This document shows positions 1,699 through 20,597 of a stretch of 64,000 nt of DNA, in pieces. Under the pieces are notes generated by a model. It did not search any database and had not been told where the DNA came from. It saw only the letters and a program-made list of their open reading frames with translations. Origin of the DNA: Lactobacillales bacterium (lineage in GTDB: Bacteria; Bacillota_I; Bacilli_A; RF39; UBA660); contig SVAG01000006.1 of NCBI GenBank assembly GCA_015059545.1, forward strand, positions 723-64,722, read 5' to 3'. Position 1 is the first letter of the stretch. Every line of letters starts with the position of its first letter. The translations under genes were made by a program, and so were the position numbers.

Positions 1699-2073
1699 AT
1701 GAATAAAAAAGGATTAACTATTGTAGAATTGCTTGCAGTATTAGTTATAATTGGTTTAATAGCACTTGTTATATTTCCGGTTGTTACTGATAATATAACT
1801 GGTTCTCAAAAAAAATCACAGGAAATACAAAAAGCAAGTATAAAGGAAGCTGCAGAATCATATGTTGCTGAAAATATTGGAAAAACAATAAATTTTACTG
1901 AAGCAGATAATAAAGAAGAAATAAACTTAAATACTTTAATAGAAGAAGGATATTTAAAAGGAAATTATAATAATCCTCAAACTGGAAAAGAGTATGATTT
2001 AGAAACTTCAAAAGTAACTGTAACAAAAGATAATAATAGTTATAGTTATGATGTAGTATTAAATACAAAATAA
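1699..2073 (+). CDS. Prepilin-type N-terminal cleavage/methylation-domain protein, a ComGC/type IV pilin-like pseudopilin
   Basis: MNKKGLTIVELLAVLVIIGLIAL. This is the G|LTIVE class-III signal with Glu at +5, followed by a hydrophobic helix and a 124-aa soluble tail. Confidence 0.7.
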   Translation: MNKKGLTIVELLAVLVIIGLIALVIFPVVTDNITGSQKKSQEIQKASIKEAAESYVAENIGKTINFTEADNKEEINLNTLIEEGYLKGNYNNPQTGKEYDLETSKVTVTKDNNSYSYDVVLNTK

Positions 2074-2075
2074 AA

Positions 2076-2104
2076 TACCATAATTAAATGGTATTTTTAT
2101 TTTA
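2076..2104 (+). terminator. Rho-independent terminator
   Basis: ataccat-aattaa-atggtat hairpin followed by a T-run. Confidence 0.7.
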
Positions 2105-2156
2105 ATAATTGTAAAAAATAATGAAATATATTATAATATACTCTATGGGTGGTTAT

Positions 2157-2948
2157 ATGGATAATATTATTAAAATAAATGATCTTAACTTTAAATATAA
2201 AGATAAAATAATATTTGAAGATTTAAATTTAAATATTAAAAGAAATACTTTTACAACTATTATAGGATCAAATAATTGTGGAAAAAGTACTCTATGTAAA
2301 ATAATATTAGGAATTATAAAAACTGATTCAGAAATTATGATTGATGATATTAATTTGAATGATAAAAATATCAAAAAAATACGTAAAGTAATAGGTTATA
2401 TTCCGAATAATATATCTGATTCTATAATTATGGATACAGTAGAAGAAGAAATAATATCATCAGTTTCTAAATACAAAAAACAAGATTTAGAAGAATTAAT
2501 AAATAAATTTAATTTTAGTCATTTATTAAAAAGAAATCCAAAAACACTAAGTGGTGGAGAACAACAATTAATGTGTATAATTTCTAATTTATTAAAACAC
2601 CCAAAAATATTAATATTTGATAAATCATTTTCTATGTTGGATAATCTTATTAAAGATAAAATATTAAAAATGATGAAAAAAATATCAAAAGAAGAAAATA
2701 TAACAATTATTAATTTTACTAATGATACAGAAGATGTTGTTTATGGAGATAATATAGTTATTATAGATAATAATAAAATATTAATAAATGAAAAAAAAGA
2801 AATATTATTAAATGATGAAAAATTATTTAAAAGTTTAAATTTAAAACTTCCTTTTATGGCTGATTTATCAAAAAAACTTAGTTATTATAATCTTGTTAAT
2901 ACTTTAGAATTAGATATGACTAGAATGGTGAATAAAATATGGAAATAA
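2157..2948 (+). CDS. ecfA1: Energy-coupling-factor (ECF) transporter ATPase subunit EcfA1
   Basis: Walker A GSNNCGKSTL and ABC signature LSGGEQQ. It is the first of two tandem ABC ATPases upstream of ecfT-truA-rplM-rpsI. An ATG at 2121 is an alternative start without an RBS. GGTGG precedes 2157. Confidence 0.75.
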   Translation: MDNIIKINDLNFKYKDKIIFEDLNLNIKRNTFTTIIGSNNCGKSTLCKIILGIIKTDSEIMIDDINLNDKNIKKIRKVIGYIPNNISDSIIMDTVEEEIISSVSKYKKQDLEELINKFNFSHLLKRNPKTLSGGEQQLMCIISNLLKHPKILIFDKSFSMLDNLIKDKILKMMKKISKEENITIINFTNDTEDVVYGDNIVIIDNNKILINEKKEILLNDEKLFKSLNLKLPFMADLSKKLSYYNLVNTLELDMTRMVNKIWK

Positions 2949-3748
2949 CAATAGAAAATCTATATTTTAAATATCCAGAACAAGATTATATATTAAGTAA
3001 TGTTAATTTGATAATTAAATCAAATATAATAACAGGTATTATAGGACCAAATGGAAGTGGAAAAACAACATTAATAGAAATAATAGATGGATTATTAAAA
3101 CCAGTAAAAGGTATAGTTAAATACAATAAAGTGGAAAAAATAAATCCTAAAGATATTGGATATATATTTCAAAATTCTAAGAATCAATTCTTTTCTAAAA
3201 CAGTAAAAGAAGAATTAGAATTAGGAGCTAAAATTAATAATTATAAATTAGATGTTTTAGATAAAAGAGTATTAGATGTATTAAAAATAGTTAAATTAGA
3301 TAAAGAAATATTAGATAAAAATCCTTTAACTTTAAGTAATAGTGAAGCTAAAAAGATTGCTATCGCATCTATTCTTATGTATAATCCAAAACTAATAATA
3401 TTAGATGAACCAACATTGAATTTAGATGATAAGTCTAAAGATGAATTTATCAAACTTATAAAAATGTTAAAAAATAGATATAATAAGACAATAATAATAA
3501 TATCACATGATATAGATTTATTGCATAAAATAGTTGATAATGTAGTTTTATTAAATGAAGGAAAAATAGTATTAGAAGGTAATAAATATGATGTATTTAA
3601 AGATTCAAAAACATTGAAAAAATATGGATTATTACCTCCTAAAGTAATTATGTTTTCAAATAAAGTATTAAATAAAAAAGGTATTAAATTAGGTTATAGA
3701 GATGAAATAAATGATTTAATAAAGGATATATATAGAAATGTTTACTAA
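2939..3748 (+). CDS. ecfA2: ECF transporter ATPase subunit EcfA2
   Basis: Walker A GPNGSGKTTL. It is the second ABC ATPase and overlaps the ecfA1 stop. Synteny is conserved. Confidence 0.8.
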   Translation: MEITIENLYFKYPEQDYILSNVNLIIKSNIITGIIGPNGSGKTTLIEIIDGLLKPVKGIVKYNKVEKINPKDIGYIFQNSKNQFFSKTVKEELELGAKINNYKLDVLDKRVLDVLKIVKLDKEILDKNPLTLSNSEAKKIAIASILMYNPKLIILDEPTLNLDDKSKDEFIKLIKMLKNRYNKTIIIISHDIDLLHKIVDNVVLLNEGKIVLEGNKYDVFKDSKTLKKYGLLPPKVIMFSNKVLNKKGIKLGYRDEINDLIKDIYRNVY

Positions 3749-4475
3749 TATAACAATAGGAAAATATATATATAAAGAATCAATCATACATAAAATTCAT
3801 CCTATAATTAAAATAATAATGTTATTATTTATTATCTTTTTATCATTAATATCAAGTTATAAAGAAAATATTATTTTATTAGCATATGTATTATTAATTT
3901 CAATATTAACAAAAATAAATATAAAAACATATTTAAAAAATATATATGGATTAAGATATCTTATAATATCAATATTATTTATTAATTTAATATTTAATGT
4001 TAGTGTTTTAAATAGTATAAATTCTATAGAAAAATTAATTATCATATTTATATATTCATCAATATTGATGTATACAACAACTATAAATGAAATTAATTTA
4101 GCATTCAATAAATTATTATCACCATTAAAAAGATTAACTTTTGATGTAGATAATATAAGTTTAATACTAACTATTTCAATTAAATTTATAACAACTATAT
4201 TTGAAGAAGTAGATATATTATTTAAAGCTTTTAAAAGTAGAGGATATAAATTTAATGGAAGTGTTAAAGATAGAATAAATAAAGTTAAAAACTTTTTAAG
4301 TACATTATTTTATTTATTACTTAAAAAATCAGATGATATAGGAACTATATTAGAAATAAAAAATTATAATTTAAAAAAGATAGTTAAAAGAAATAAAAGA
4401 AAAATTAAAATAAAAGAGTATTTAATATTAGTTATAAATATAATTTTATTAATTATTATTAAGAAGGTGGTTTAA
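3738..4475 (+). CDS. ecfT: ECF transporter transmembrane subunit EcfT
   Basis: A polytopic hydrophobic protein of 245 aa immediately downstream of ecfA1/ecfA2, in the conserved Firmicute gene order. Confidence 0.7.
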   Translation: MFTNITIGKYIYKESIIHKIHPIIKIIMLLFIIFLSLISSYKENIILLAYVLLISILTKINIKTYLKNIYGLRYLIISILFINLIFNVSVLNSINSIEKLIIIFIYSSILMYTTTINEINLAFNKLLSPLKRLTFDVDNISLILTISIKFITTIFEEVDILFKAFKSRGYKFNGSVKDRINKVKNFLSTLFYLLLKKSDDIGTILEIKNYNLKKIVKRNKRKIKIKEYLILVINIILLIIIKKVV

Positions 4476-7279: not shown

Positions 7280-8146
7280 ATGAAAATTAGTAATGAATGG
7301 ATTGATTATAAAATAATAGATGCTGGAAATAAAGAAAAATTAGAAACATGGAAAAATGTTACTTTAAGAAGACCAGATCCTCAAGCTTTATGGCCAATAG
7401 ATTTTGATAATAAGTGGAAAAATATTGATGCTTTTTATCATAGAAGTAATAAAGGTGGAGGTAGTTGGGAATTTAAAAATAAATTACCTGAATATTGGAC
7501 AATAAATTATAAAGAATTAACATTTAAAGTAAGTCCTACTAATTTTAAACATACAGGTTTATTTCCAGAACAAGCAGCAAATTGGGATTATATGATAGAT
7601 AAAATTAAAAATTCAAATAGAAAAATAAATGTGCTTAATCTATTTGCATATACAGGTGCAGCTACTATGGCATGCTCTTATGCAGGAGCAGATGTTGTTC
7701 ACGTTGATTCAGCACGCGGTATGGTTGAATGGGCAAAGGAAAATATGAAATTATCTCATTTAGAAAATAATAAAATTAGATTTATAGTAGATGATTGTTT
7801 AAAATTTGTTTTAAGAGAAAAAAGAAGAGGAAATAAATATGATGCTATTATAATGGATCCACCTTCTTTTGGAAGAGGACCTAGTGGTGAAGTATGGAAA
7901 TTTGAAGATAAAATAATTGAACTTATAGAAGCATGTACGGATATTTTAAGTGATAAACCTTTATTCTTTCAAGTAAATTCATATACAACAGGATTTTCTA
8001 AAACAGTACTTGAAAATGTACTTAAAACTACATTATTAAAAAAATATAAAAGTGGAAGAGTTGAATGTGATGAAATAGGTCTTCCAATTGAAAATAGTGA
8101 TCTTGTTTTACCATGTGGAATATATGGTAGATGGGAAAGTAAATAA
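7280..8146 (+). CDS. Class I SAM-dependent methyltransferase, RlmI/YbaJ-like
   Basis: LNLFAYTGAATMA (motif I-like) and IIMDPPSFGRG (DPPxF motif IV). It occupies the ybaJ position between rpsI and cwlD, as in Bacillus. Confidence 0.6.
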   Translation: MKISNEWIDYKIIDAGNKEKLETWKNVTLRRPDPQALWPIDFDNKWKNIDAFYHRSNKGGGSWEFKNKLPEYWTINYKELTFKVSPTNFKHTGLFPEQAANWDYMIDKIKNSNRKINVLNLFAYTGAATMACSYAGADVVHVDSARGMVEWAKENMKLSHLENNKIRFIVDDCLKFVLREKRRGNKYDAIIMDPPSFGRGPSGEVWKFEDKIIELIEACTDILSDKPLFFQVNSYTTGFSKTVLENVLKTTLLKKYKSGRVECDEIGLPIENSDLVLPCGIYGRWESK

Positions 8147-8177
8147 TATTAAAACATATATTTTATTAGGTGATAAA

Positions 8178-8837
8178 ATGCTTAAATATAAAATATATGT
8201 TTTTTTATTTTTTATAATAGGGGCTCTTAGTATAAATATAGCTTATGCTAGTAACAATAATTTAGAATTGTTTGGTAAAGTAATATATTTAGATGCTGGA
8301 CATGGAGGAGTTGATTCAGGAGCTACTTATAAAAATATAAAAGAAAAAGATATTAATTTAGAAATATGTTTGAAATTAGAAGAAGAATTAACTAAAAGAG
8401 GAGCAATTGTATATCAAACAAGATATGGTGATTATGATTTATCTCTTCCAAATACTATTAATAGAAAAAGAAGTGATTTATCAAGAAGAAGTAATGTTAT
8501 AAACAGAGCTAATCCTGATTTATTTATATCAATTCATTTAAATGCAGAATCAACTGGTATTTGGAGAGGACCTCAAGTATTTTATAATGACAATAATGAA
8601 GATAATGAAATTATTGCTAAATTATTTCAAAAAGAATTAAATAAATCATTAAAGGGTAATAGAGATTATAAAAAAGATAATGGTTTATATTTACAAAAAA
8701 GAGTAAAAGTACCAGGTGTATTAATAGAAGTAGGTTTTTTAAGTAATAATAATGATAGATATTTACTTAAAAATAAAGAATATCAAACTAAAGTATCTAG
8801 AATTATTACTAATAGTATAATCTATTATTTTAAATAG
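8178..8837 (+). CDS. cwlD: Germination-specific N-acetylmuramoyl-L-alanine amidase CwlD (Amidase_3)
   Basis: LDAGHGGVDSGA amidase_3 motif, an N-terminal TM helix, about 220 aa, and the conserved rpsI-(ybaJ)-cwlD synteny. The ORF-track start at 8088 is an upstream extension. AGGTGA precedes 8178. Confidence 0.75.
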   Translation: MLKYKIYVFLFFIIGALSINIAYASNNNLELFGKVIYLDAGHGGVDSGATYKNIKEKDINLEICLKLEEELTKRGAIVYQTRYGDYDLSLPNTINRKRSDLSRRSNVINRANPDLFISIHLNAESTGIWRGPQVFYNDNNEDNEIIAKLFQKELNKSLKGNRDYKKDNGLYLQKRVKVPGVLIEVGFLSNNNDRYLLKNKEYQTKVSRIITNSIIYYFK

Positions 8838-8903: not shown

Positions 8904-9830
8904 ATGAATAAGATATTCAAAACTCTTGATCAACAAATTGAAATATTAAAATCAAGAAACCTTATTATAAATGATGAAGAAAGTACTAAAGATATATTAC
9001 TTAGAGAAAACTATTTCTTTATAAATGGATATCGTCATATGTTTTTAGATAGTGAAAGAAGTAGAAATTTTTTAGAAGGAACAACATTTGAAGAATTATA
9101 TGCTACATTTTTATTCGATAGAGATGTAAGAAATATAATGTTTAAACATTTACTTATAGTTGAAAATAATTTCAAATCGATTATAAGTTATCAATTATCT
9201 AAAAAATATGGGTTTAAAGAAAAAGATTACTTGGATCCAAAAAACTTTACACAAGATAGTTTAAAATCAAGACATGTTCATGATATTTTAAATAAAATGA
9301 GAAGACAAATTAGAGTTAATGGTAGACAGCATACTGCAACTCTTCACTATTTAAGTAATTATGGATATATTCCTATGTGGATCTTAGTAAAAGTTTTATC
9401 ATTTGGAATAATTGCAGAATTATATGACATTTTAAAATATGAAGATCAAATGACTATTGCAGATTTATATCATTTAGATCCAGATACATTATCAACATAT
9501 CTTCATTTACTTGCAAATTTTAGAAATCTATGTGCTCATGAAGATATTTTATACGATCATAGAACACAAAAAGAAATACCAGATAATAAATATCATTATT
9601 TATTAGATATTGAAATGAAAGATGATCATTATATATATGGAAAAAATGATTTATTTGCAGTAGTAATTATGTTAAAAGAATTATTAACTGAACAAGAATT
9701 TAATGAATTTATTTCAGAATTAGGATATGAAATAGATTTGTTAGACGGAAAAATTAATGTAATTCCAACTAATATAATTTTAAATTGTATTGGTTTTCCA
9801 AATAATTGGCGAGATATAAATAAAGTATAG
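8904..9830 (+). CDS. Abi-family abortive-infection protein, Abi_2/AbiD-AbiF-like
   Basis: N-terminal LDQQIEILKSRNLIINDEE..LLRENYFFINGY is characteristic of Abi_2 (PF07751). 308 aa. Confidence 0.6.
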   Translation: MNKIFKTLDQQIEILKSRNLIINDEESTKDILLRENYFFINGYRHMFLDSERSRNFLEGTTFEELYATFLFDRDVRNIMFKHLLIVENNFKSIISYQLSKKYGFKEKDYLDPKNFTQDSLKSRHVHDILNKMRRQIRVNGRQHTATLHYLSNYGYIPMWILVKVLSFGIIAELYDILKYEDQMTIADLYHLDPDTLSTYLHLLANFRNLCAHEDILYDHRTQKEIPDNKYHYLLDIEMKDDHYIYGKNDLFAVVIMLKELLTEQEFNEFISELGYEIDLLDGKINVIPTNIILNCIGFPNNWRDINKV

Positions 9831-9838
9831 GAGGATAC

Positions 9839-10930
9839 ATGAAAAATAAATTAAATTATTTGATAGGTATTATTATTTCGTTATTTGTAGGATGTATGTG
9901 TACATTGATAGTTTTAAATAATTTTAATTTATTAGGTAGTAATAAAAAAGAAATAATAGAAAAAACCATAAATGAAGTTAACGTAACTGAAACAGATACA
10001 CTTAAAAATTCTATTGATAAAGTTTATGATGCTGTTGTAGTTATACAAGGATATGAGAATGGTAAATTAAGTAGTACAGGTACAGGTTTTTATTATAAAA
10101 AAGATTCTAAAAGAGGTTATATAATAACTAATCATCATGTTATAGAAGATAGCGATTTAATTAAAGTAACAAATACTTCTAATGTTGAAAGTGAAGCTAC
10201 CTTGCTTGGAAGTGATGAATATTTAGATATAGCTATATTGTCTGTTGATGCAAAGGATGTTATTAAAGTAGCTAAATTAGGTGATACTTCTAAAGTTAAT
10301 GTTGGTGATACTGTATTTACAGTAGGATCTCCTTTAGGTATTAAATATATGGGAACAGTAACAAAAGGAATTTTATCTGGTAAAAATAGACAAGTAACAG
10401 TTAGTGTTTCTAGTAATAAATTTATTATGGATGTCTTACAAACAGATGCAGCTATAAACCCTGGTAATAGTGGAGGACCTCTTTTAAACATTAATGGTGA
10501 AGTTATAGGAGTTACATCTTTAAAATTAGTACAAGATGAAATAGAAGGAATGGGTTTTGCTTTACCAATTGAATCGGTAAAAAATTCATTAGAAAGTTTA
10601 GAAAATGGTAAAGAAATTAACAGACCTGTATTCGGAGTTCAATTGCTAGATGTAGAAAATAAGTCTATGCTTAGAAGATATGGTATAGAGTTAAGTGATA
10701 AAATAAATAACGGAGCAATTATAATTAAAATAGAAAAAAATACATCTGCTTCTGAATCAGAATTAAAAGTTGGTGACATTATAGTTAAAATTAATGATGA
10801 TAAAGTAAAAGATTCTGCACATTTTAGATATTGTTTATATAAATATAGTATTGGAGATACAATTAAAGTAACTTACAATAGAAATGGTAAAGAAAATACT
10901 ATAAGTGTAAAATTAACTGATAAATCTTAA
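9839..10930 (+). CDS. htrA: HtrA/DegP-family trypsin-like serine protease with a PDZ domain
   Basis: N-terminal TM helix, an ITNHHV His region, DAAINPGNSGGPLLN catalytic Ser, and a C-terminal PDZ-like region. Confidence 0.85.
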   Translation: MKNKLNYLIGIIISLFVGCMCTLIVLNNFNLLGSNKKEIIEKTINEVNVTETDTLKNSIDKVYDAVVVIQGYENGKLSSTGTGFYYKKDSKRGYIITNHHVIEDSDLIKVTNTSNVESEATLLGSDEYLDIAILSVDAKDVIKVAKLGDTSKVNVGDTVFTVGSPLGIKYMGTVTKGILSGKNRQVTVSVSSNKFIMDVLQTDAAINPGNSGGPLLNINGEVIGVTSLKLVQDEIEGMGFALPIESVKNSLESLENGKEINRPVFGVQLLDVENKSMLRRYGIELSDKINNGAIIIKIEKNTSASESELKVGDIIVKINDDKVKDSAHFRYCLYKYSIGDTIKVTYNRNGKENTISVKLTDKS

Positions 10931-10957: not shown

Positions 10958-11152
10958 TTCCACAATATAAAATATGTATATATAATTAATTATTACAGAA
11001 AATAAATATTATAATAATATTTTAAATTTTATAAATTATATTTGATAAAAATGTCTTAAAATGTAAAATTAAATGTAAATTAAATTAATTTTGATTGACT
11101 AAATAAAAATACATATGATATAATCGTATTAATGATAGGAGGTTTATACAAT

Positions 11153-11665
11153 ATGGAAAAGAAAAAGAATTTTGTAATCGGTACTTTACTTGCTGCAATC
11201 GTTTTAATGTCAGTAGGTTACGCAGCATTAGCTCAAGTATTAACTATTAACGGTACTGCTAACATTAGTGCTGATTGGGATGTTGAAATCACAGGAATTA
11301 CAGAAGGTACTTTAACAGGAGCAACTACACAAACTGTTACTTCAGATGCTACTTCTGCAACATTCAATGTTGATTTAGCTTATCCAGGTGCAACTGCTAC
11401 TTACGAAATAGATATTGAAAACAAAGGAACAATCGATGCTGTATTAGAAAGTATTACAGGTGTAGATGCTGCAAACACTGCACTTCCAACTGAAGTTCAA
11501 TATACAGTAACAGGAGTTGCTGAAGGAGATACTTTAGATGCTAAAGCAACTACAAAAGCAATTGTTACAGTTACTTGGGTAGCTAGCGCTGACAATACTG
11601 ATACTGTTCCAACAACAACATCAAAAACTGCAACAATTAACTTAAATTATGTTCAAAATACATAA
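11153..11665 (+). CDS. Secreted TasA/camelysin-like beta-rich protein (paralog 1) with a putative SipW-type signal
   Basis: MEKKKNFVIGTLLAAIVLMSVGYAALA|QVLTINGTANI, with Ala-x-Ala before Gln. The body is T/V/A-rich and ends ..ATINLNYVQNT. AGGAGG RBS 10 nt upstream. The ORF-track start at 11132 is an extension. Confidence 0.6.
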   Translation: MEKKKNFVIGTLLAAIVLMSVGYAALAQVLTINGTANISADWDVEITGITEGTLTGATTQTVTSDATSATFNVDLAYPGATATYEIDIENKGTIDAVLESITGVDAANTALPTEVQYTVTGVAEGDTLDAKATTKAIVTVTWVASADNTDTVPTTTSKTATINLNYVQNT

Positions 11666-11670
11666 TAAAA

Positions 11671-11699
11671 AATAAGGGACAGTAATGTCCTTATTTTTG
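11671..11699 (+). terminator. Rho-independent terminator
   Basis: aagggaca-gtaa-tgtcctt hairpin followed by a T-run. Confidence 0.7.
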
Positions 11700-11713: not shown

Positions 11714-12874
11714 ATGAGAAGACGAAGAAGAAGAAAAGAATTAAGTTTAACTAAAATAATTGTTCTTTTTGTTGTATGTACTTTAACTTTTAGTGTTGGA
11801 TATTCACTTTTATCTCAACAATTATCAGTAGAAGGTACAGTAAACCTTTTGTATGAAAAAGAACTAACTTGTAAGGAATATGTAACGGATGAGTTAAAAT
11901 TAACTTATGATAATAAAATGTTATGGCATAATGCAGGTTTAAATTATATGCAAATTGATATAACATTAACTAATTTAACACAAGAAGAAATGACTGACTG
12001 GAAAGTAATGATAAAGTTTATTAGTGATATTGAAATATCGGGTTCTTGGGCAGGTAATTATACAGAAAGTGATAATAAAGTTACAATAACAGGATTAGAT
12101 TGGAATAAAACATTAGCACCTGGTGGACAAACTACTTTTGGATTTCAAGTAAGTACACCTGATGAAGAAATTCATTTAAGCTCAATTTATCTTAATGGTG
12201 ATTTAGCAATACCTGGAGAATCATGTAGTAATGTTTCGGATGGAGACAACACAGGCGGAGATAACACAGGTGGAGATAACACAGGCGGAGACAACACAGG
12301 TGGAGATAACACAGGCGGAGACAACACAGGCGGAGACAACACAGGTGGAGATAACACAGGTGGAGATAACACAGGTGGAGATAATACAGGCGGAGATAAC
12401 ACAGGTGGAGATAACACAGGTGGAGATAATACAGGCGGAGATAACACAGGCGGAGATAACACAGGCGGAGACAACACAGGCGGAGATAACACAGGTGGAG
12501 ATAACACAGGTGGAGATAACACAGGTGGAGATAACACAGGTGGAGGAACATTTACTCCAGAAATAACATCTTCAAATGTAGATGTAAAAGTTACGAATAC
12601 AACTTCATGGGGAACTGAAGGGAATTATACTTATCAATATGATATTACTGTTACAAATAATTCGGATGTCAATATAGATGGATGGAGTTTTCAATTTGAG
12701 ATTCCTGATGGTGCTTCTATGGGAGATTATTGGCAATGTGAATATATAAATGCGGATGGAGTTGTTACAATATTATCCAATACAAATACTGCAAAATTAG
12801 AAGTTGGACAATCTGCTCAAATAGGATTCCACATAAAGGTTCCAACAAACACTTATGTACTTAAAGTAAGATAG
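11714..12874 (+). CDS. Secreted protein with the same SVGY..LSQ signal motif, two CBM2-like beta-sandwich domains and a (GGDNT)x~20 linker
   Basis: [35 protein letters not shown]. The first domain has ...[19 protein letters not shown], as in CBM2. The second domain has W..GW.FQFE..W...[10 protein letters not shown]. Confidence 0.65.
12240..12545 (+). repeat. Array of about 20 copies of a 15-bp repeat, GGAGA(C/T)AACACAGG(C/T), encoding (GGDNT)n
   Basis: Direct reading of the sequence. Two unit variants alternate irregularly. The array is in frame, a multiple of 3. Confidence 0.95.
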
Positions 12875-12883
12875 GAGTTAATT

Positions 12884-14068
12884 ATGACAAAAATTAGTTT
12901 AAGAACAATATTAATATATTTAATTGCAATTCTTTATACTGTATTTGTTTCAATATTATTTATTGATGATATTGTTTCAAGTTACAATTTATTGATAAAT
13001 CCTATCTTTTGGATAGCTTTATTTGGTTTATCATTATATTTATTTAAAGATAGTAAAACTCGAATAAAATTAAAAAAAGATAAGGTTCAAACTATATTTA
13101 TAATAATCCTTATGTACTTGATTTTCTATTTTTTATCAGGGTTATTCTTTGGATACTCTAGAAGCCCATATGCCCATTCAATAATTGGGATAATCAAAAA
13201 TTTATGGTCATTTGTAATAATAATATTTTTTCAAGAATATGTTAGACATATATTGGCAAATAATTGTTCTAAAAGAAAACTTTTCTATGTATTAACAACT
13301 ATACTATTTATATTAATTGAAATAAATTTTTATAATTTTGAAAACAATTTTGTATCAGGAGAGTCAGGTTTTAAATATATCAGTTCAATTTTATTACCAA
13401 TAATAGTTAGAAATATATTATTTACTTATTTAACACTTGAATGTGGTTTTGAGGCTGTATTAGCATATAGAATGCCAATTATGTTTGCTAATATAATATT
13501 ACCAATATTTCCTGATTTAAACTGGTTTATTATAGCTTTATATGAATTAGTTTTACCATTTGTATGTTTTATTGTTATAAATTATATGCATACAAAAAAA
13601 CAAGAAAGAATATCAAGAAGAAGAATAAGAAAGCAAAATCCAATTAAAAATGTACCATTTATATTAGTATTATTCTTATTTGTTGGGTTTGTTGCTGGTT
13701 TCTTTAAATATATGCCTATTGCAGTTATGTCTAATAGTATGTCTAATGTAATAAATAGGGGAGATATGGTTGTAGTAGAAAAATTAAGTAAAAAAGAAGT
13801 TAAAAATTTGAAGAAACAAGATATTATTGAATATAATTTAGATGGAGATGTTATTATCCATAGAATTATAGAAGTTCAAAAGCAAAAGGATGGATCTGTT
13901 AGATTTATAACTATGGGTGATAATAATACAGCTCCAGATAATAAACCTGTAAAACAAGATCAGGTTATGGGAAAAGTAAAATTTAAAGTTTCTTATATAG
14001 GATATCCAGTTGTGTATTTAAATGACTTCTTCCAAAAAACTAAACCAGATGTTGAAATGGGAAAATAA
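12884..14068 (+). CDS. sipW: Fusion protein of an N-terminal polytopic membrane domain (about 8 TM, 290 aa) and a C-terminal SipW/Sec11-type (archaeal-type) signal peptidase I domain
   Basis: The C-terminal domain has AVMSNSMSNVINRGDMVVVEK (SxSMxP..GD box), VIIHRII (His box) and FITMGDNNTAPD (GDNN box), as in TIGR02228. The preceding 290 aa are multi-pass hydrophobic. Confidence 0.7.
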   Translation: MTKISLRTILIYLIAILYTVFVSILFIDDIVSSYNLLINPIFWIALFGLSLYLFKDSKTRIKLKKDKVQTIFIIILMYLIFYFLSGLFFGYSRSPYAHSIIGIIKNLWSFVIIIFFQEYVRHILANNCSKRKLFYVLTTILFILIEINFYNFENNFVSGESGFKYISSILLPIIVRNILFTYLTLECGFEAVLAYRMPIMFANIILPIFPDLNWFIIALYELVLPFVCFIVINYMHTKKQERISRRRIRKQNPIKNVPFILVLFLFVGFVAGFFKYMPIAVMSNSMSNVINRGDMVVVEKLSKKEVKNLKKQDIIEYNLDGDVIIHRIIEVQKQKDGSVRFITMGDNNTAPDNKPVKQDQVMGKVKFKVSYIGYPVVYLNDFFQKTKPDVEMGK

Positions 14069-14075
14069 ATATGTA

Positions 14076-14102
14076 AAATGCAGTGTAAACTGCATTTTTT
14101 TT
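14076..14102 (+). terminator. Rho-independent terminator
   Basis: aaatgcag-tgtaaac-ctgcattt hairpin followed by a T8 run. Confidence 0.75.
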
Positions 14103-14159: not shown

Positions 14160-14672
14160 ATGACAGATAAAAAAAGAAATATACTTATAGTAGCTTTATT
14201 TGTAGCAATAGTGGCAATGTCTGTTGGTTATGCAGCATTAGCACAAGTTTTAAATATTAATGGTACAGCAAATATAGCGGCAGAATGGAATGTAGAAATA
14301 ACTGATATTCAAGTTAAAGAACAAAACGGTGCAACTGATAGAGTTAATCCATCATATACAAGTAAAACAGCAAGTTTTGATGTAAATTTAGCTTATCCAG
14401 GAGCAAGTTCTACATATATAGTAACAGTAAAAAATAGTGGAACTATAAATGCAAAATTATCTGAAATTACAGGTATAGATGCAGCAAATTTATCTGATCC
14501 AACTGCAGTACAATATACTGTTACAAAAGTGGACACTAATGATGAATTAAATGTAGGTGAAACTAAAACATTTGAAGTAAAAGTTGAATGGTTAAGTACA
14601 GATGATGGTACAAATATAACAGCTTCAAATAAAACAGCAACAATTAACTTTAATTATGTACAAAATCAATAA
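14160..14672 (+). CDS. Secreted TasA/camelysin-like beta-rich protein (paralog 2) with a putative SipW-type signal
   Basis: MTDKKRNILIVALFVAIVAMSVGYAALA|QVLNINGTANI and ...ATINFNYVQNQ C-terminus. It aligns end to end with the 11153..11665 product. Confidence 0.6.
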   Translation: MTDKKRNILIVALFVAIVAMSVGYAALAQVLNINGTANIAAEWNVEITDIQVKEQNGATDRVNPSYTSKTASFDVNLAYPGASSTYIVTVKNSGTINAKLSEITGIDAANLSDPTAVQYTVTKVDTNDELNVGETKTFEVKVEWLSTDDGTNITASNKTATINFNYVQNQ

Positions 14673-14701: not shown

Positions 14702-15766
14702 ATGAGTAACAATATGACTTTTCCAAAAAGAAAAGTTCTTAAAAAATGGGCTCGTTATTCTTTATTAGGAATAATAATAACATTTTTTATATCTTCTATT
14801 GTTATTATATTAACTAGTTTTAATAAACCTGATAAAAACGAAGACGTATTATTATACTCATATAATGTAAATCAGGATTTAGATTATAAAGTAAATTTAT
14901 ATGACAATAGTTATATAGAATCTAGTTATTTAGGGAAAGATGATACTTATATTTCAGATTTAATAAAAGAAATACAAATAGATTATAAGTATAAATATGC
15001 TGGTTCAAAAGTTGTTCCATTAAATTATACTTATGATGTAGTAGCGACTATAAATGGTGAATATAGTCTAGAAGAAGAAGATTCTAAAGTATGGACTAAA
15101 GAATATAAATTGGTTCAAAATAGAAATGGTAAAATTACAGACAAGACATCTATAAATATAACTGAACCAGTAAGTTTAAATTTTAGTTATTATAATAATG
15201 TAGTATCAAATTTTAGAAAAGAACTACGTTTACCAATAAAAGCCTCATTAATAGTAGTATTTAAGATAAACGTTACAGGTGAAGTATCAGGACAAAAAAT
15301 AAATGATACAAAACAAATGACTTTATCATTTCCTTTAAATCAGCAAGCATTTAAAATTACTGAAAAATATGAGGAAAACTTTAATAATAGTATAAAGCCA
15401 CCTGTAGAAAAGAAAGAAAAAGTTAATTCTAGAAAATTAATATGTGGAATTATATTATTATCAACAGCTATATTTATATTTATATTATTCTTTAGAGAAA
15501 TATTTAATATTCCAAGAAAAAATAAATATACAATTCAATTAAATAAAATATTAAAAGAATATGGAGATATCATAATCGAAGTAATAAATCCAGTAAGTGA
15601 ATTTGAAATGGATATTGTAGAAGTCAAAAACTTCAATGAAATGATAGACTTAGAAGAAGAACTTAGGGTTCCAATAATGTTCTATGAAACAATAGAATAT
15701 TTAGAAGGAGAATTTACATTAGTTCATAATAATATATTATATAAATTTGTTTTAAGAAATGAATAG
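14702..15766 (+). CDS. Bitopic membrane protein of unknown function (354 aa), a possible fibre-assembly accessory
   Basis: TM helix at residues 20-40, a central beta-rich extracytoplasmic region, a second TM at about 240-260, and an acidic C-terminal cytoplasmic domain. Its position in the locus is the basis for the accessory suggestion. Confidence 0.45.
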   Translation: MSNNMTFPKRKVLKKWARYSLLGIIITFFISSIVIILTSFNKPDKNEDVLLYSYNVNQDLDYKVNLYDNSYIESSYLGKDDTYISDLIKEIQIDYKYKYAGSKVVPLNYTYDVVATINGEYSLEEEDSKVWTKEYKLVQNRNGKITDKTSINITEPVSLNFSYYNNVVSNFRKELRLPIKASLIVVFKINVTGEVSGQKINDTKQMTLSFPLNQQAFKITEKYEENFNNSIKPPVEKKEKVNSRKLICGIILLSTAIFIFILFFREIFNIPRKNKYTIQLNKILKEYGDIIIEVINPVSEFEMDIVEVKNFNEMIDLEEELRVPIMFYETIEYLEGEFTLVHNNILYKFVLRNE

Positions 15767-15831: not shown

Positions 15832-17187
15832 ATGGCAAAGATAGTTATTGATGCTGGACATGGAGGAGATGATCCTGGTGCTAGTGGAAATGGTATTATA
15901 GAAAAAGATTTAGTTTTAGACATTTCTAATTATATGTATGATAGATTTAGAGAATTAGGTATACCTGTTGCTTTAACTAGATCTACAGATATTACATTAA
16001 ATCCAACAGATAGAACAAATAAAATTCTAAATCAATTTGGTAATACAAGTGATGTAATTGTTATTTCCAATCATATAAATGCAGGTGGAGGAGATGGTGC
16101 TGAAGTAATATATGCGCTTAGAGATAATAATAATTTATCTAATTTAATATTAGAAAATTTTGAAGAAGTAGGTCAAAATGTAAGAAAAGCATATCAGAGA
16201 AGATTACCTAGTGATACTTCAAAAGATTATTATTTTATACATAGAAATACAGGAAATACGGAACCTATTATAGTAGAATATGGATTTTTAGATAGCACAG
16301 GTGATGATGTAAATCAATTAAAAAATAATTGGAGAAATTTAGCAGAAGCTGTTGTTAAATCAGTAGCAGAGTATACAAATACATCATATGATAAAGGGTT
16401 AGGAACTACTTATACAGTAAAAAGTGGAGATACATTATGGAGTATAGCTAAAAAATTTAATATGACTGTAAATGAATTAAAAGAAATAAATAATTTGACA
16501 AGTAATACACTTAGAATAGGCCAAATATTGAAGATAAATGAGCAACTTCCATCATCAGATGAAAATACATATATAGTAAAAAGAGGGGATACATTATATG
16601 GAATTGCTAATAAATATGGTGTTACAGTTAATGAAATAAAGAATTTAAATAATTTAATGAATAGTTCACTTAGTATAGGTCAAATTCTTAAAATTCCAGT
16701 AAATGAAGACAATATGGAAGATTATTTAATTTACACAGTAAAAAATGGAGATACATTATACGGAATAGCAAGAACATATAATATAACACCAAGTGAAATT
16801 ATTTCTTATAATAATTTAAATAGTACGGTATTAAATATAGGACAAAATTTAAAAATACCATTTAAAAATATTTCTGACGATGAACAAAATATAGAATATA
16901 TTATTTATACAGTAAAAAGCGGAGACTCTTTATATAGTATAGCTAGAAAATACAATACATCTGTTAATGAGATAATGAATTTAAATAATTTAACAAGTAA
17001 TTTATTAAGCATAGGTCAAACTTTAAAAATTCCTGTAGAAGAATCAAAAGATATAGTTTATACAGTAAAGAGTGGAGATAATCTTTATAGTATAGCAAGA
17101 AAATATAATACAACTGTTGCTAATATAAAAAATAAAAATAATTTAACAACTAATTTACTTAGTATAGGACAAAAATTAATAATATAA
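15832..17187 (+). CDS. N-acetylmuramoyl-L-alanine amidase (Amidase_3) with five C-terminal LysM repeats
   Basis: IDAGHGGDDPGA motif, then 5x YTVKxGDTLYxIAxKYN..Nx(L/I)..IGQxLKIP LysM units. Confidence 0.85.
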   Translation: MAKIVIDAGHGGDDPGASGNGIIEKDLVLDISNYMYDRFRELGIPVALTRSTDITLNPTDRTNKILNQFGNTSDVIVISNHINAGGGDGAEVIYALRDNNNLSNLILENFEEVGQNVRKAYQRRLPSDTSKDYYFIHRNTGNTEPIIVEYGFLDSTGDDVNQLKNNWRNLAEAVVKSVAEYTNTSYDKGLGTTYTVKSGDTLWSIAKKFNMTVNELKEINNLTSNTLRIGQILKINEQLPSSDENTYIVKRGDTLYGIANKYGVTVNEIKNLNNLMNSSLSIGQILKIPVNEDNMEDYLIYTVKNGDTLYGIARTYNITPSEIISYNNLNSTVLNIGQNLKIPFKNISDDEQNIEYIIYTVKSGDSLYSIARKYNTSVNEIMNLNNLTSNLLSIGQTLKIPVEESKDIVYTVKSGDNLYSIARKYNTTVANIKNKNNLTTNLLSIGQKLII

Positions 17188-17216
17188 AAGCACTTAATCA
17201 AGTGCTTTTTATTTTT
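17186..17216. terminator. Bidirectional terminator between convergent genes
   Basis: aaaagcactt-aatca-agtgctttt hairpin with A- and T-runs on both sides. Confidence 0.7.
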
Positions 17217-20118
17217 CTAATTTATATATATAATGTCTTGCTGTTGTGTTTTCAACTTTTTTTGAAAAACCTAAAAATATTTTATTATTAATAATTTTTA
17301 TACCTTCTGGCTCCCATATTTCTTTATTAGTAGGATTACCTAATTTATAACGATATGCAATCTTTTCGCCTTGAAGCGAATAAATTGAAAGGAATGGTCC
17401 TATGCTGTAATTATTGTTAGTAGTAGGGTTTCCTTCTAGTATATATATATAATTTCCATTAACTGTAAACCCTTGCCAACTTATATTGTTAGTATTATCT
17501 GGTAATGAAAATTTAAAAGCTATTTTAGGTGAACTTGAATTTATGAAATCATCTAAATTATATACTTTATAAGTTGTATCATGCCTTATAACTAAAATTC
17601 GATTATTATTATCAATGGCTGCTTGTCCTTGATAATTGTAAGTTTTAACATTTAATTGATCTTTAGTTATTGTTTTACAATTATTCCCATTTGGACTAAA
17701 TAAATTATTTGTTAATTTAATTCTACATATTTTTGTTGATTTATATTCTCCAGGTGCATCTTTTTTTTCTATTCCATCACAACCAACCCATATAAATGTA
17801 TTGTTATTAGTTTTTTCAAAATCAATATTACCTAAGTGTCCAAATTTAGGAAGATTTATACATGAAACTATTGAGTTATTATTTGCATCTATTTTATTAA
17901 TATAAGCATCTCTTTGTGTAATGTATAAGTAGTTATCATCCTTAATCCATGATTGCATGTTTCTAGCTTTATTTGATAATGTTAACTTTGATTTATATAC
18001 TTTTTTAGTTGTTGTAGGATTAATATAATTTCCTGCAACTTTAACGCTTACTTTTGTTTTTGCTTTGAAATTTCCATCTTTAGTTTTAGCTGTAATAGTA
18101 GCTGTACCTATTTTTTTAGCTGTTATAATACCTTTTGCATCAACAGAAACAATTTCTGGGTCATTACTAGACCAAATAATTGTTTTATTAGTAGCATCAT
18201 TAGGTTTAATGGTAGCAATAATTTTTTTAGTATTAGTTTTATTAATAGTAATATTACTAGTATTTAATTTAATTCCAGTAACAGGTGTTTTAACAGTTAT
18301 AGTAGATATTATTTTATAATTATTTTCTTTAGTGGCTGCTGTTATATTTGTTATACCGTCACTAATAGCTTTTATATTACCATTTTGATCAACAGTAGCA
18401 ACTTTCGGATTACTACTAGACCAAATAATTGTTTTATTAGTGGCATCACTAGGTTTAATAGTAGCAGTAATTTTTGAATTTTGACCTTTATTTAAATTAA
18501 TCTTCTTTTTATCAATTTGTATTCCAGTAACAGGTACATTTACTATAACTCTACAAGATGTTTTAAAGTTTCCGTCTTTAGAAGAAATATAAATATATGT
18601 TATTCCTCCAGAAACAGCAGTAACTTTTCCGTTTTGATCGACAGTAGCGATTTTTGGATTACTACTAGACCAAGTTACACTTTTATTTGATGCATATTCA
18701 GGATATATATCATAAGTTAAATTAAAACTCTTATTTTTATTTAGTGTTAAACTTGTTTTATTTAATTTAATATTTGTAACTAAATTTTTTACTGTAACAT
18801 TTATGGATGTTTTAAATTTATTATCTTCTGATTTTACTATTATAGTTGTGGAACCATTAGAAATACCTTTAATATTACCATTTTGATCAACAGTAGCGAT
18901 TTTTTGATTGCTACTAGACCAAATAATTGTTTTATTAGTAGCATCACTTGGGGTAAAAATGACATTAACTTTTTTTATCTCATTTTTTCCTAATTGTAGG
19001 TTAGTAACATTTGTTTTAATTCCATTTAATGGGACATAAACATTAACTTTGCAAGTTGCTTTTGTATTTCCATCTTTAGAAGAAGCAGTTATAATTGAAT
19101 TACCACTAGAAATAGCAGTAACTTTTCCGTTTTGATCAACAGTAGCGATTTTAGAATTACTACTAGACCAAATAATATCTTTATTTCCAGCATCATTAGG
19201 TTTTATAGTATAAGTTAAATTAAATGTATTATTCTTTTTTAAAGAAATATTTGTTTTATTTAAAGTTATATTAGTTACTAGTTTATTAACTATTATTTTA
19301 ATAGAAGTTTTAAATTTATTATCTTTAGTTTTAACTGTAATAGTTGTAGTTCCATTAGAAATAGCAGTAACTTTTCCGTTTTGATCAACTGTAGCGATTT
19401 TAGAATTACTACTGGACCAATAAAAATCTTTATTGTCTGCATCATTAGGTGTTATAATCAAGTTTAATTTTTTTGTAGAATCATTATTCATATATATATT
19501 TTTTTCTTTAAATTTAATCTCTTTTATATGTGATGTAACTTTTATATTACATTTATCTTTATAGCCACCATCTTTAGAAGTAACAGTGATAATTGTATTT
19601 CCTTTTTGTAATGCAGTAACTTTTCCATTTTGATCAACAGTAGCAACTTTTGGGTTACTACTAGACCAGTAAAAATCTTTATTAGTGGCGTTATTAGGTT
19701 CAATATTAACTTTTAAATTAATAGAATCTGATTTATTTAAAGTTTTATTATTATAATTTAGTTTTACGTTTTTAATATATATATATTGTTTTTCATTTGT
19801 TTCTTTTTCCCATTTTGCTGTTAAAGTAGTGTTTTTTGTTATTTGAATATCATTCTCTATTTTGTTATTATTTTCATCATACCATCCTAAAAATATGTAG
19901 TTTTCTTTTTGAGGAGATATTAAATTTTTTAAATTACTATTACAATCTATTTTTTTATTAGGAATATTAAAATCACTATTACTATTAAAGACTATTAAAC
20001 ATTCATTTTTAGTTGAAGAAAATTTATTTGTTGTAAAAATAAGTATTCCAGTAAATAAAAATACAAATATAAGAATCCTATAATCTATTATTTTTAAAAT
20101 TTTCTTCATAAATATCAT
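17209..20118 (-). CDS. Large surface protein with about 8 tandem bacterial Ig-like (Big_2) domains and a C-terminal non-Ig domain of about 280 aa
   Basis: N-terminal TM/signal. Repeated ..ATNKDFYWSSSNPKVATVDQNGKVTA...TIITV.. Big_2 units. The C-terminal domain is rich in N/Y/W. Confidence 0.75.
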   Translation of the reverse strand: MIFMKKILKIIDYRILIFVFLFTGILIFTTNKFSSTKNECLIVFNSNSDFNIPNKKIDCNSNLKNLISPQKENYIFLGWYDENNNKIENDIQITKNTTLTAKWEKETNEKQYIYIKNVKLNYNNKTLNKSDSINLKVNIEPNNATNKDFYWSSSNPKVATVDQNGKVTALQKGNTIITVTSKDGGYKDKCNIKVTSHIKEIKFKEKNIYMNNDSTKKLNLIITPNDADNKDFYWSSSNSKIATVDQNGKVTAISNGTTTITVKTKDNKFKTSIKIIVNKLVTNITLNKTNISLKKNNTFNLTYTIKPNDAGNKDIIWSSSNSKIATVDQNGKVTAISSGNSIITASSKDGNTKATCKVNVYVPLNGIKTNVTNLQLGKNEIKKVNVIFTPSDATNKTIIWSSSNQKIATVDQNGNIKGISNGSTTIIVKSEDNKFKTSINVTVKNLVTNIKLNKTSLTLNKNKSFNLTYDIYPEYASNKSVTWSSSNPKIATVDQNGKVTAVSGGITYIYISSKDGNFKTSCRVIVNVPVTGIQIDKKKINLNKGQNSKITATIKPSDATNKTIIWSSSNPKVATVDQNGNIKAISDGITNITAATKENNYKIISTITVKTPVTGIKLNTSNITINKTNTKKIIATIKPNDATNKTIIWSSNDPEIVSVDAKGIITAKKIGTATITAKTKDGNFKAKTKVSVKVAGNYINPTTTKKVYKSKLTLSNKARNMQSWIKDDNYLYITQRDAYINKIDANNNSIVSCINLPKFGHLGNIDFEKTNNNTFIWVGCDGIEKKDAPGEYKSTKICRIKLTNNLFSPNGNNCKTITKDQLNVKTYNYQGQAAIDNNNRILVIRHDTTYKVYNLDDFINSSSPKIAFKFSLPDNTNNISWQGFTVNGNYIYILEGNPTTNNNYSIGPFLSIYSLQGEKIAYRYKLGNPTNKEIWEPEGIKIINNKIFLGFSKKVENTTARHYIYKLEK

Positions 20119-20171: not shown

Positions 20172-20597
20172 TTAATGTATTTCTTTACATATCCCTGGAT
20201 CAGGTATATAGAAACAATGACTTTTATATCTTCCTGATAATTTTTGATCATACCAAGTATTTGTACATGCTACACCTGTTTTAGGAGCATAAAACCATAA
20301 TGAATTAGTAGCTGGATGGTAATATTCTCCTCTTATTATTCTGTCGGCTAAATTTTTTTCTGTAGTTGTAGGATTACCATAAAATAAAGAACCTTTTGTT
20401 CCAGAAAATTGATTTGGTTGATATATAACATCTGATATCGTGGAAACATTTTTAAAAGTTAAACAGTTTGCAAGTGCTCTATTAACTACAACATTACCAA
20501 CCATAAGCATTCCAAGGTTACCTTCTCCTACAGCTTCAGCTCTCATTATTCTAGCAAGTAAATCTCTTTCTTTACTTGTATATTTTATAATTGACAT
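20172..20597 (-). CDS. SleB/CwlJ-family cell-wall hydrolase (Hydrolase_2 domain), CwlJ-like
   Basis: LLARIMRAEAVGEG..GMLMVGNVVVNR matches the Hydrolase_2/SleB catalytic-domain signature. 141 aa. Confidence 0.7.
   Translation of the reverse strand: MSIIKYTSKERDLLARIMRAEAVGEGNLGMLMVGNVVVNRALANCLTFKNVSTISDVIYQPNQFSGTKGSLFYGNPTTTEKNLADRIIRGEYYHPATNSLWFYAPKTGVACTNTWYDQKLSGRYKSHCFYIPDPGICKEIH

Follow-up and report, generated by a model that had tools for sequence, protein, structure and literature searches.

This report concerns a fused signal peptidase (SPase) encoded at positions 12884-14068 of a 64,000-nucleotide window, the whole stretch of DNA that was analysed, from contig SVAG01000006.1 of a Lactobacillales bacterium (GTDB lineage RF39; UBA660). 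Within this protein of 394 amino acids, a Sec11/SipW-type catalytic domain follows an N-terminal domain of eight predicted transmembrane (TM) helices. With a little better than even confidence, we read it as the dedicated leader peptidase of a donor-strand fibre system resembling that of the archaeal protein AbpX, in which the N-terminal module would be a non-catalytic pseudo-protease scaffold that docks leaders ending in G-Y-A. Polytopic SPases at abpX loci are already known; what is new here is the modelled CPBP-like pseudo-protease fold for their extra helices and, on the strength of that model, a suggested parallel with the SpbR-SpsB pair of S. aureus. The parts of the protein are as follows.

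12884..14068, forward strand: fused signal peptidase gene, complete, 394 amino acids (list of open reading frames, ORFs; full-length homologues in more than 120 clusters; AlphaFold2 model, AF2)
12884..13603, forward strand: N-terminal 8-TM domain, residues 1-240, predicted CPBP/Rce1-like fold, catalytic motifs degenerate
13592..13639, forward strand: basic cytoplasmic linker, residues 237-252, TKKQERISRRRIRKQN, 8 Lys or Arg among 16 residues
13640..13702, forward strand: TM9, residues ~253-273, the peptidase's own membrane anchor (hydropathy; AF2 helix 253-271; TIGR02228 match from 259)
13709..13999, forward strand: Sec11/SipW-type (S26B) signal peptidase catalytic domain, beta-rich, residues 276-372
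13736-13738, 13859-13861, 13919-13921 and 13937-13939, forward strand: catalytic codons for Ser285, His326, Asp346 and Asp352, respectively

The gene is a single, uninterrupted ORF with an AGGAG ribosome-binding site 8 nt 5' of its ATG, and the upstream gene stops 9 nt before it. Hydropathy and the AF2 model, which was built from 35 homologues (mean predicted local distance difference test score, pLDDT, 83.2; predicted template modelling score, pTM, 0.69), agree on TM helices 1-8 at residues 6-25, 31-53, 64-89, 100-126, 132-146, 159-187, 189-205 and 214-240. When all loops are compared by the positive-inside rule, Lys and Arg are concentrated in those after TM2, TM4 and TM8, a pattern that places the N-terminus inside and the SPase domain outside. 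A first-pass annotation, made by a model from the letters of this DNA, had proposed an SPase catalytic domain behind a polytopic domain of ~290 amino acids with no fewer than 8 TM helices; this is a genuine and conserved fusion, with the polytopic part now refined to eight plus one TM helices. At the other end of the protein, residues 385-394 (14036-14065) form a C-terminal tail. A conserved short ..VE[T/M]G ends the window protein and most of the bacterial members of alignment A4 that have no tenth TM helix, with ..P-D-V-E-M-G-K, V-D-V-E-T-G and E-Y-E-L-G among its variants in that alignment.

The fusion is genuine and old. Its full-length architecture is common to more than 120 clusters at 38-95% identity, with lengths of 379-398 amino acids. 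Identical copies of the protein were recorded on 14 contigs of several origins, and a Lactobacillales metagenome-assembled genome (MAG) names it 'signal peptidase I'. Frameshift or mis-assembly, which the first-pass annotation had raised as a possible source of the fusion, is ruled out by these 14 identical copies together with the breadth of the full-length clusters. Searched against 1.84 billion proteins, an N-domain profile matched 1,478 cluster representatives at E <=1e-3 and 1,085 at <=1e-10. Among the best 150 of these, the match nearly always covers residues 1 to ~238 of a protein of ~370-400 amino acids, and the shorter matches mostly break inside the domain, like contig-end fragments. 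No clear case of a split N-domain gene was seen among the same 150, so the idea that the domain occurs as a separate gene beside sipW in relatives found no clear example; P0304 (244 amino acids), which ends in the linker, could be a stand-alone N-domain. A search seeded with a distant member extends to the Clostridia, through cultured members (Proteocatella sphenisci, Acidaminobacter sp.), and to the MAG of a Thermoprotei archaeon, and the archaeal members (P0447, P0439) carry an extra C-terminal TM helix for a total of ten. When genome contigs were scanned with the single protein as query, 5 MAG loci were returned. In P0384 (655 amino acids), a CBM-type accessory protein is joined to the fused peptidase at the junction ...FVRW-YMKK...; this may be a TGA codon read through by a gene caller using another genetic code, not a true triple fusion.

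Turning to the peptidase domain, residues 259-380 match NCBIfam TIGR02228 (archaeal or endoplasmic reticulum (ER)-type signal peptidase I) with 84.8 bits over a cutoff of 51.85, and the Pfam S26 and S24 scores lie just over their cutoffs. The arrangement is that of the TIGR02228 class, with an N-in TM anchor immediately before an extracytoplasmic catalytic domain, and the top Foldseek matches are SEC11A/C (E 2.5e-5 for the catalytic domain). The SPase boxes S283-x-S285-M286, H326-R327 and G345-D346-x-N348...D352 lie where the first-pass annotation had put them and are invariant in 35 homologues; in the broad alignment A4, too, S285, M286, H326, R327, G345, D346, N348 and D352 do not vary. The general-base position is a His (H-R), not a Lys, and the roles of these residues are assigned by analogy with Sec11 and TafD. 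The annotation had also drawn attention to an Asn in place of the Gly of the S-G-S-M box. The change is real; it carries no significance, since the position is N, G or D among relatives and distant family members have the canonical G-S-M-E-P. The evidence supports a C-terminal Sec11/SipW-type domain with its catalytic residues kept, situated on the outer face of the membrane and anchored by TM9.

Evidence for the substrates comes from the three proteins that flank the peptidase. They have in common a leader made of a basic N-region, one TM helix and the motif S-V-G-Y-[A/S]-x-L-x-x-x-L-x-[I/V]-x-G-T, and no other ORF of the window has an S-V-G-Y-[A/S] leader.

11153..11665, forward strand: small fibre subunit 1, AbpX-family, 170 amino acids from Met8 of a 177-residue ORF (11132-11665)
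11153-11224, forward strand: subunit 1 leader, residues 1-24, ending G22-Y23-A24
11225-11266, forward strand: putative N-terminal donor strand of subunit 1, ALAQVLTINGTANI
11714..12874, forward strand: CBM2 + CBM49 protein, leader ...SVGYS31 (CBM_2 2.3e-24, CBM49 7.7e-11)
14160..14672, forward strand: small fibre subunit 2, 170 amino acids, a paralogue of subunit 1 (53% identity), leader ending G23-Y24-A25

Nearly all listed homologues of subunit 1 are 167-184 amino acids long and align from Met8, so its start is probably the ATG at 11153 (MEKKKNF...). The G, Y and A of the leader are invariant in 30 subunit homologues, and only the bond after G-Y-[A/S] agrees with the -3/-1 rule across all substrate classes. 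The alternative sites A27|Q28 and A40|D41 were dropped because they break that rule in several classes; AbpX itself is cut after ..T-Y-A. The peptidase would cut the three neighbouring precursors right after G-Y-[A/S] (-3 to -1), at the end of the N-terminal TM helix. To judge from the pattern of residues, cleavage would free an alternating-hydrophobic strand, ALAQVLTINGT... (L6, I8, G10, A12, I14), as the donor strand for polymerisation. In its AF2 model (pLDDT 85.7), subunit 1 consists of a TM helix, a disordered segment at 27-43 and a beta-sandwich, for which a fold search gave generic Ig-like matches only. Besides the CBM2 proteins, the same G-Y-[A/S] leader is found on longer proteins at two other loci, L007 (3210-3878; 222 amino acids, the ORF running off the contig end) and L009 (3744-5348; 534 amino acids), in both cases downstream of a gene for a DUF5305 protein. 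Evidently, the substrate set extends beyond the 170-residue subunits. The link to neighbouring substrates that the annotation had suggested is thus a strong one, built on a common G-Y-[A/S] leader and a conserved gene cassette.

The kind of fibre is suggested by a preprint on Pyrodictium AbpX (Sleutel et al., bioRxiv 10.64898/2026.01.04.697558, Jan 2026). It describes a dedicated SPase I with ten TM helices at abpX loci in bacteria and archaea, regards DUF5305 as the likely SPase accessory subunit, and leaves the extra helices without an assigned fold or function. According to its supplement, P. abyssi AbpX reads ...A-I-G-L-T-Y-A / Q-W-S-E-T-L-S-L-S-A-T-I-S-T-G, with a mature start at QWSETL. 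The window subunits read ...M-S-V-G-Y-A / A-L-A-Q-V-L-T-I-N-G-T-A-N-I, in which the Y-A context is as in AbpX, and further on the two have A-Y-P-G-A ... E-N-x-G-T-I-x-A in common. With hhalign, window-type subunits (A3) match subunits of distant loci, archaeal ones included (A6), at 99.1% (E 7.5e-19); the distant-locus subunits match AbpX at 98.0% (E 2.3e-13), and the window-type subunits match AbpX directly at 87.7% (E 3.4e-6). By this leader context and these profile matches, the locus is, as judged from sequence, an abpX-like one for donor-strand fibres of the TasA superfamily, and it comes from an uncultured member of the Bacilli with low GC. One detail of the donor strand sets the clade apart: in the window strand, Leu occupies position 2 and Gln position 4, where AbpX and the subunits of loci L017/L018 have Trp2 and Asp/Glu4. 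Since Trp2 and Asp/Glu4 have been tied to calcium-mediated strand complementation (bioRxiv 10.64898/2026.01.04.697558), polymerisation may be calcium-independent in the window clade.

The last member of the cassette lies just downstream of subunit 2.

14702..15766, forward strand: DUF5305 protein, 354 amino acids, TM ~16-43 and 243-271 (PF17231 4.4e-22)

Across the window and 13 further loci, which range from 35% identity to archaeal distance, a DUF5305 gene stands within two genes downstream of the peptidase in 14/14 and directly adjacent in 12. Small subunits without a Pfam family stand beside the peptidase in all of the loci except those of one species (L001/L002). A role for DUF5305 as an SPase accessory has been proposed (PMC11821415 and bioRxiv 10.64898/2026.01.04.697558), and by analogy the window protein is proposed as a TafG-like SPase accessory subunit.

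The eight-helix domain is the less familiar half of the protein. Two of its segments, which the first-pass annotation had picked out within FFQEYVRH and LPIFPD as conserved-looking, are truly conserved.

13232..13246, forward strand: Q117-E118-Y-V-R121, cytoplasmic end of TM4 (E118 and R121 invariant in alignments A1 and A2, at least 90% in A4)
13502..13525, forward strand: P207-I-F-P210-D-L-N-W214, conserved extracytoplasmic TM7-TM8 loop (P207 invariant, P210 at least 90%, archaeal members included)

E118, R121, P207 and P210 are invariant or near-invariant down to ~20% identity, and across the breadth from Bacilli to Archaea the only residues kept are G86, N106, E118, R121, P207 and P210. 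In the AF2 model, a short strand at 208-210 lies beside a strand at 91-93 of a conserved G-Y-x-x-S-P-Y loop. The predicted structure has an eight-TM Rce1-like fold, with a Foldseek probability of 0.85 and a TM-score of 0.52 against Rce1. TMEM147 and APH-1, which we take to be assigned to the same fold class, are also among the fold matches. The Q117-R121 site would correspond to CPBP motif 1 (EExxxR), as judged by its position rather than by superposition; as Q117-E118-x-x-R121 it departs from that motif, with one Glu lost and a spacing one residue shorter. Motifs 2 (FxxxH) and 3 (HxxxN/D) are absent, there being no invariant or near-invariant His in residues 1-240. In the 2013 account by Manolaridis, the His of motifs 2 and 3 is reportedly critical for Rce1-type activity.

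More generally, alignment A1 and the broad alignment A4 hold no conserved His, Cys or Ser in the N-domain. This finding speaks against the second catalytic module that the annotation had entertained. The Cys-Arg-His triad of an exosortase or archaeosortase is excluded by the lack of a conserved Cys or His and the Ser-His dyad of a rhomboid (with its GxSG Ser) by the lack of a conserved Ser or His; neither an exosortase nor a rhomboid fold is among the fold matches. A CPBP domain had been another candidate, of which the predicted fold stands while the catalytic motifs and any sequence or profile homology do not. A CPBP-like fold without the catalytic His/Asn motifs leads to the reading of a non-catalytic pseudo-protease scaffold, and the term that suits the N-domain best, on its model, is CPBP-like pseudo-protease.

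By analogy, the 8-TM module would be a non-catalytic scaffold like SpdC, LnsB and, above all, SpbR. SpdC and LnsB are non-catalytic CPBP scaffolds for membrane enzymes, and SpbR of S. aureus is a stand-alone CAAX-like protein whose motifs (HELYMR, FIYLD and QIVAI) are degenerate (PMC12260438). Its TM5 and TM7 bind the TM helix of the signal peptidase SpsB while a surface loop binds the SpsB extracellular domain; SpbR modulates or inhibits SpsB cleavage, and mutations of its retained Glu and Arg are without effect (PMC12260438). Transferred to the window protein, the fused module would, on an assumed packing of TM9 and the catalytic domain against it, clamp TM9. It may further offer a docking site, lateral and embedded in the membrane, where the leader could bind by its TM helix and basic N-region, which is the least certain step, and such docking would limit the peptidase to leaders of the G-Y-A type. 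The fused peptidase and DUF5305 would then be the prokaryotic equivalent of the eukaryotic signal peptidase complex (SPC) with its several subunits. A bolder form of this idea, which is credible and on the unlikely side, is that the CPBP-like module, the Sec11-type domain and DUF5305 form a self-contained signal-peptidase holo-complex that holds the leader helix and hands the donor strand to the previous subunit; this would be the assembly machine of chaperone- and usher-free AbpX/TasA-type fibres from Bacilli to Thermoproteota. The first-pass annotation had suggested an assembly platform that links signal-peptide removal with polymerisation or sorting of the neighbouring substrates, which may still hold.

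The scaffold analogy can also be turned around, with the CPBP-like module as a built-in regulator that restrains the peptidase until DUF5305, the growing fibre or a signal relieves the block, thereby preventing early exposure of the donor strand. The one CAAX-like signal-peptidase partner to have been characterised, SpbR, acts as an inhibitor; DUF5305, which is encoded alongside in every case, could be what lifts the block; and chaperone-free donor-strand polymers need controlled strand exposure (bioRxiv 10.64898/2026.01.04.697558). However, an inhibitor fused permanently and 1:1 to a dedicated enzyme seems wasteful, and SpbR is a separate protein of regulated levels that targets a P-type (Ser-Lys) peptidase. 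The present data do not separate inhibition from recruitment, and we consider such a regulator rather unlikely.

Several observations weigh against a docking scaffold of CPBP descent in a fibre pathway. The cleavage site, the substrate dependence and the fibre itself are, for this clade, sequence-based predictions, and at L001/L002 the peptidase-DUF5305 pair stands without an adjacent subunit gene. The CPBP relationship comes from predicted structure only, where the Foldseek E-value for Rce1 is 0.57 and SpdC lies outside the top 50. Pfam PF02517 has no match in 24 members at E up to 10, the N-domain profile has zero matches to PDB sequences at E 10, and hhalign of N-domain profiles against six CPBP proteins gives a probability of 0.3%, with no signal in local, greedy or global mode. 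Lastly, N106, E118 and R121 are kept from Bacilli to Archaea more strongly than a passive scaffold obviously needs, and could have a chemical role. The six CPBP proteins used for comparison are plasmid-borne annotated CPBP/CAAX endopeptidases, drawn from 1,015 plasmids that matched a varied synthetic CPBP core (6/6 of those fetched were so annotated), and they show the canonical motifs EExxxR (P-I-x-E-E-I-x-F-R-G), FGxxH and HxxxN. A Leu-rich synthetic core found no match among plasmids, probably due to low-complexity masking.

In the absence of profile homology, the relation to CPBP holds at the level of the predicted fold only. The resemblance could be fortuitous and the N-domain a polytopic module of other origin, such as a membrane platform that keeps the enzyme in place or holds the base of the fibre. 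The domain has no Pfam or NCBIfam family, and its matches to TauE, TIGR04002, Lig_chan and OpgC are weak, fall short of cutoff and differ from member to member. No stand-alone CPBP gene came up when the window and all loci were scanned by regular expression and TM prediction. We regard a chance likeness as doubtful. It is highly improbable that the module is a second active protease, a divergent glutamate-type intramembrane enzyme using E118, N106 and R121 to degrade the cleaved leader or make a second cut: E118 and R121 do stand at the CPBP motif 1 position, conserved across domains of life with the intramembrane N106, and with subunits so abundant, many leader peptides would be left behind in the membrane, but no conserved His exists anywhere as a counterpart of the motif 2/3 His, the spacing is ExxR and not ExxxR, the retained Glu and Arg of SpbR could be mutated without phenotype (PMC12260438), and there is no sequence homology to active CPBPs. 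A docking scaffold joined to a dedicated leader peptidase stays our working model for the locus.

Expression signals and neighbouring genes complete the description of the cassette. Terminator-like sites in the region number 6 against 0.9 expected.

11095..11124, forward strand: best sigma-70-like promoter match, TTGACT-18-TATAAT + TG, upstream of subunit 1 (11/12, a consensus match only)
11675..11692, forward strand: terminator-like hairpin, weaker, in the gap between subunit 1 and the CBM2 gene
14075..14098, forward strand: intrinsic terminator-like hairpin + T-run, strong, directly 3' of the fused peptidase gene

The hairpin at 11675-11692 is possibly an attenuator that sets subunit stoichiometry; a hairpin after subunit 1 is the layout expected if the major subunit exceeds the downstream products. 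The CBM2 + CBM49 protein is probably a tip or minor subunit and a second substrate, and a CBM2 protein occupies the same position in L003, L004 and L006. Between its CBM2-like and CBM49-like domains lies a (GGDNT)x20 linker encoded by twenty tandem 15-nt units (12241-12545). The homologues in L003 and L004 have 270 and 289 amino acids, so that they may lack the GGDNT repeat or have a much shorter one.

In two spore-forming lineages, the peptidase-DUF5305 pair sits between spoVIF and spoIVA (L001/L002 8001-10295; L005 6511-12489). Together with the lack of an adjacent subunit gene at L001/L002, this placement may point to a role linked to sporulation or to substrates from other loci. Immediately upstream of the cassette are an Abi_2 gene and an HtrA-type protease gene (Trypsin_2 + PDZ), both in the window (8904-10930) and in the close relative L003 (4446-6464). 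The pair is missing from more distant loci, and the two genes are probably outside the system. The cassette is surrounded by cell-envelope genes at 8088-8837 and 15832-17187 and, on the reverse strand, at 17209-20118 and 20172-20597; these neighbours include two Amidase_3 proteins (one with five LysM repeats), a 969-residue protein with seven Big_2 domains and a Hydrolase_2 cell-wall hydrolase. Farther away, positions 2001-4000 of the window have a G+C content of 17% compared with ~23-29% elsewhere, and the ORFs there include an ABC transporter ATPase.

Fibres of the TasA, Abp and Tafi types assemble by donor-strand exchange, and we know of no chaperone, usher, sortase or ATPase for them. Against this background, a peptidase family with a permanently attached pseudo-protease-like module, comprising more than 1,000 sequence clusters in Bacteria and Archaea, may be of interest: the module is a concrete, mutable candidate for coordinating cleavage, substrate choice and polymerisation at the membrane. 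The SpbR-SpsB pairing reported in S. aureus in 2025 is suggested to be one case of a much older and more general partnership between CPBP scaffolds and signal peptidases. An invariant G-Y-A leader combined with the fused peptidase could also define a portable secretion and processing module. While the biology is not categorically new, the fused protein provides a specific, testable component in the processing and assembly of chaperone-free donor-strand fibres.

Among known systems, one to compare is SipW of the B. subtilis tapA-sipW-tasA operon. It too is an ER/archaeal-type Ser-His peptidase dedicated to adjacent TasA-superfamily subunits and has the same catalytic boxes, but it has neither a CPBP-like domain nor a DUF5305 partner. 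Residues 274-377 match the SipW equivalog NF046067 (189 positions) with 67 bits against a cutoff of 190, and a score so far below the cutoff indicates that the window protein is not a SipW orthologue. The TafD/TafG pair of haloarchaeal Tat-fimbriae likewise consists of a dedicated Sec11-type peptidase and a DUF5305 protein encoded with donor-strand pilins, and deletion of tafD blocks pilin processing (PMC11821415, PMC12337348). TafD differs in having four TM helices, an N-terminal catalytic domain, a second extracellular domain, Tat substrates and no CPBP-like module. In the eukaryotic SPC (SEC11A/C, SPC22/23, SPC25, SPC12; PDB 7p2p/7p2q), the fold of SEC11A/C is the closest solved one to the catalytic domain, and the likeness extends to the concept of a Sec11 protein with accessory TM subunits and a beta-sandwich partner, the role that the preprint proposes for DUF5305. 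The accessory TM subunits of the SPC are, however, separate polypeptides with a fold unrelated to CPBP.

Precedents for the N-terminal module come from CPBP-type proteins. SpbR, compared here from its published description, is polytopic, CAAX/CPBP-like and degenerate and is physically coupled to a type I SPase; its motif-1 region H118-E119...R123 corresponds to Q117-E118...R121 of the window protein, with Glu and Arg kept at near-equal numbering. SpbR is a separate gene product and SpsB a P-type Ser-Lys enzyme, whereas the window protein is one polypeptide of Sec11 type. For SpdC (LyrA)-SagB and Rce1 (PDB 6u0o, 4cad), the differences are that the partner of SpdC is a glucosaminidase, not a peptidase, and that Rce1 is an active glutamate intramembrane protease with EExxxR, FxxxH and HxxxN, of which the window domain has none of the His. 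The myxosortase MrtX (PMC11980579) uses a CPBP fold to read a tripartite sorting tag on surface proteins, made of a signature motif, a TM helix and basic residues; an active CPBP protein that reads such tags means that the fold can do so. MrtX is catalytically active, with intact motifs and C-terminal tags, while in the window system the tag stands at the N-terminus, with cleavage attributed to the fused SPase domain.

Also comparable are the ten-TM SPase I proteins of abpX loci, which are also TIGR02228-type polytopic enzymes encoded beside AbpX-like subunits and DUF5305 in Bacillota and Thermoproteota. Along its whole length, the window protein can be aligned with a member from the Thermoprotei, the neighbours of which have an N-terminus of AbpX type. 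It differs, together with its close relatives, in having nine TM helices, no C-terminal TM helix and the ..VE[T/M]G tail. Compared with the published description of the class and with the archaeal homologues, the window peptidase appears to belong to this polytopic class as a nine-TM Bacilli variant.

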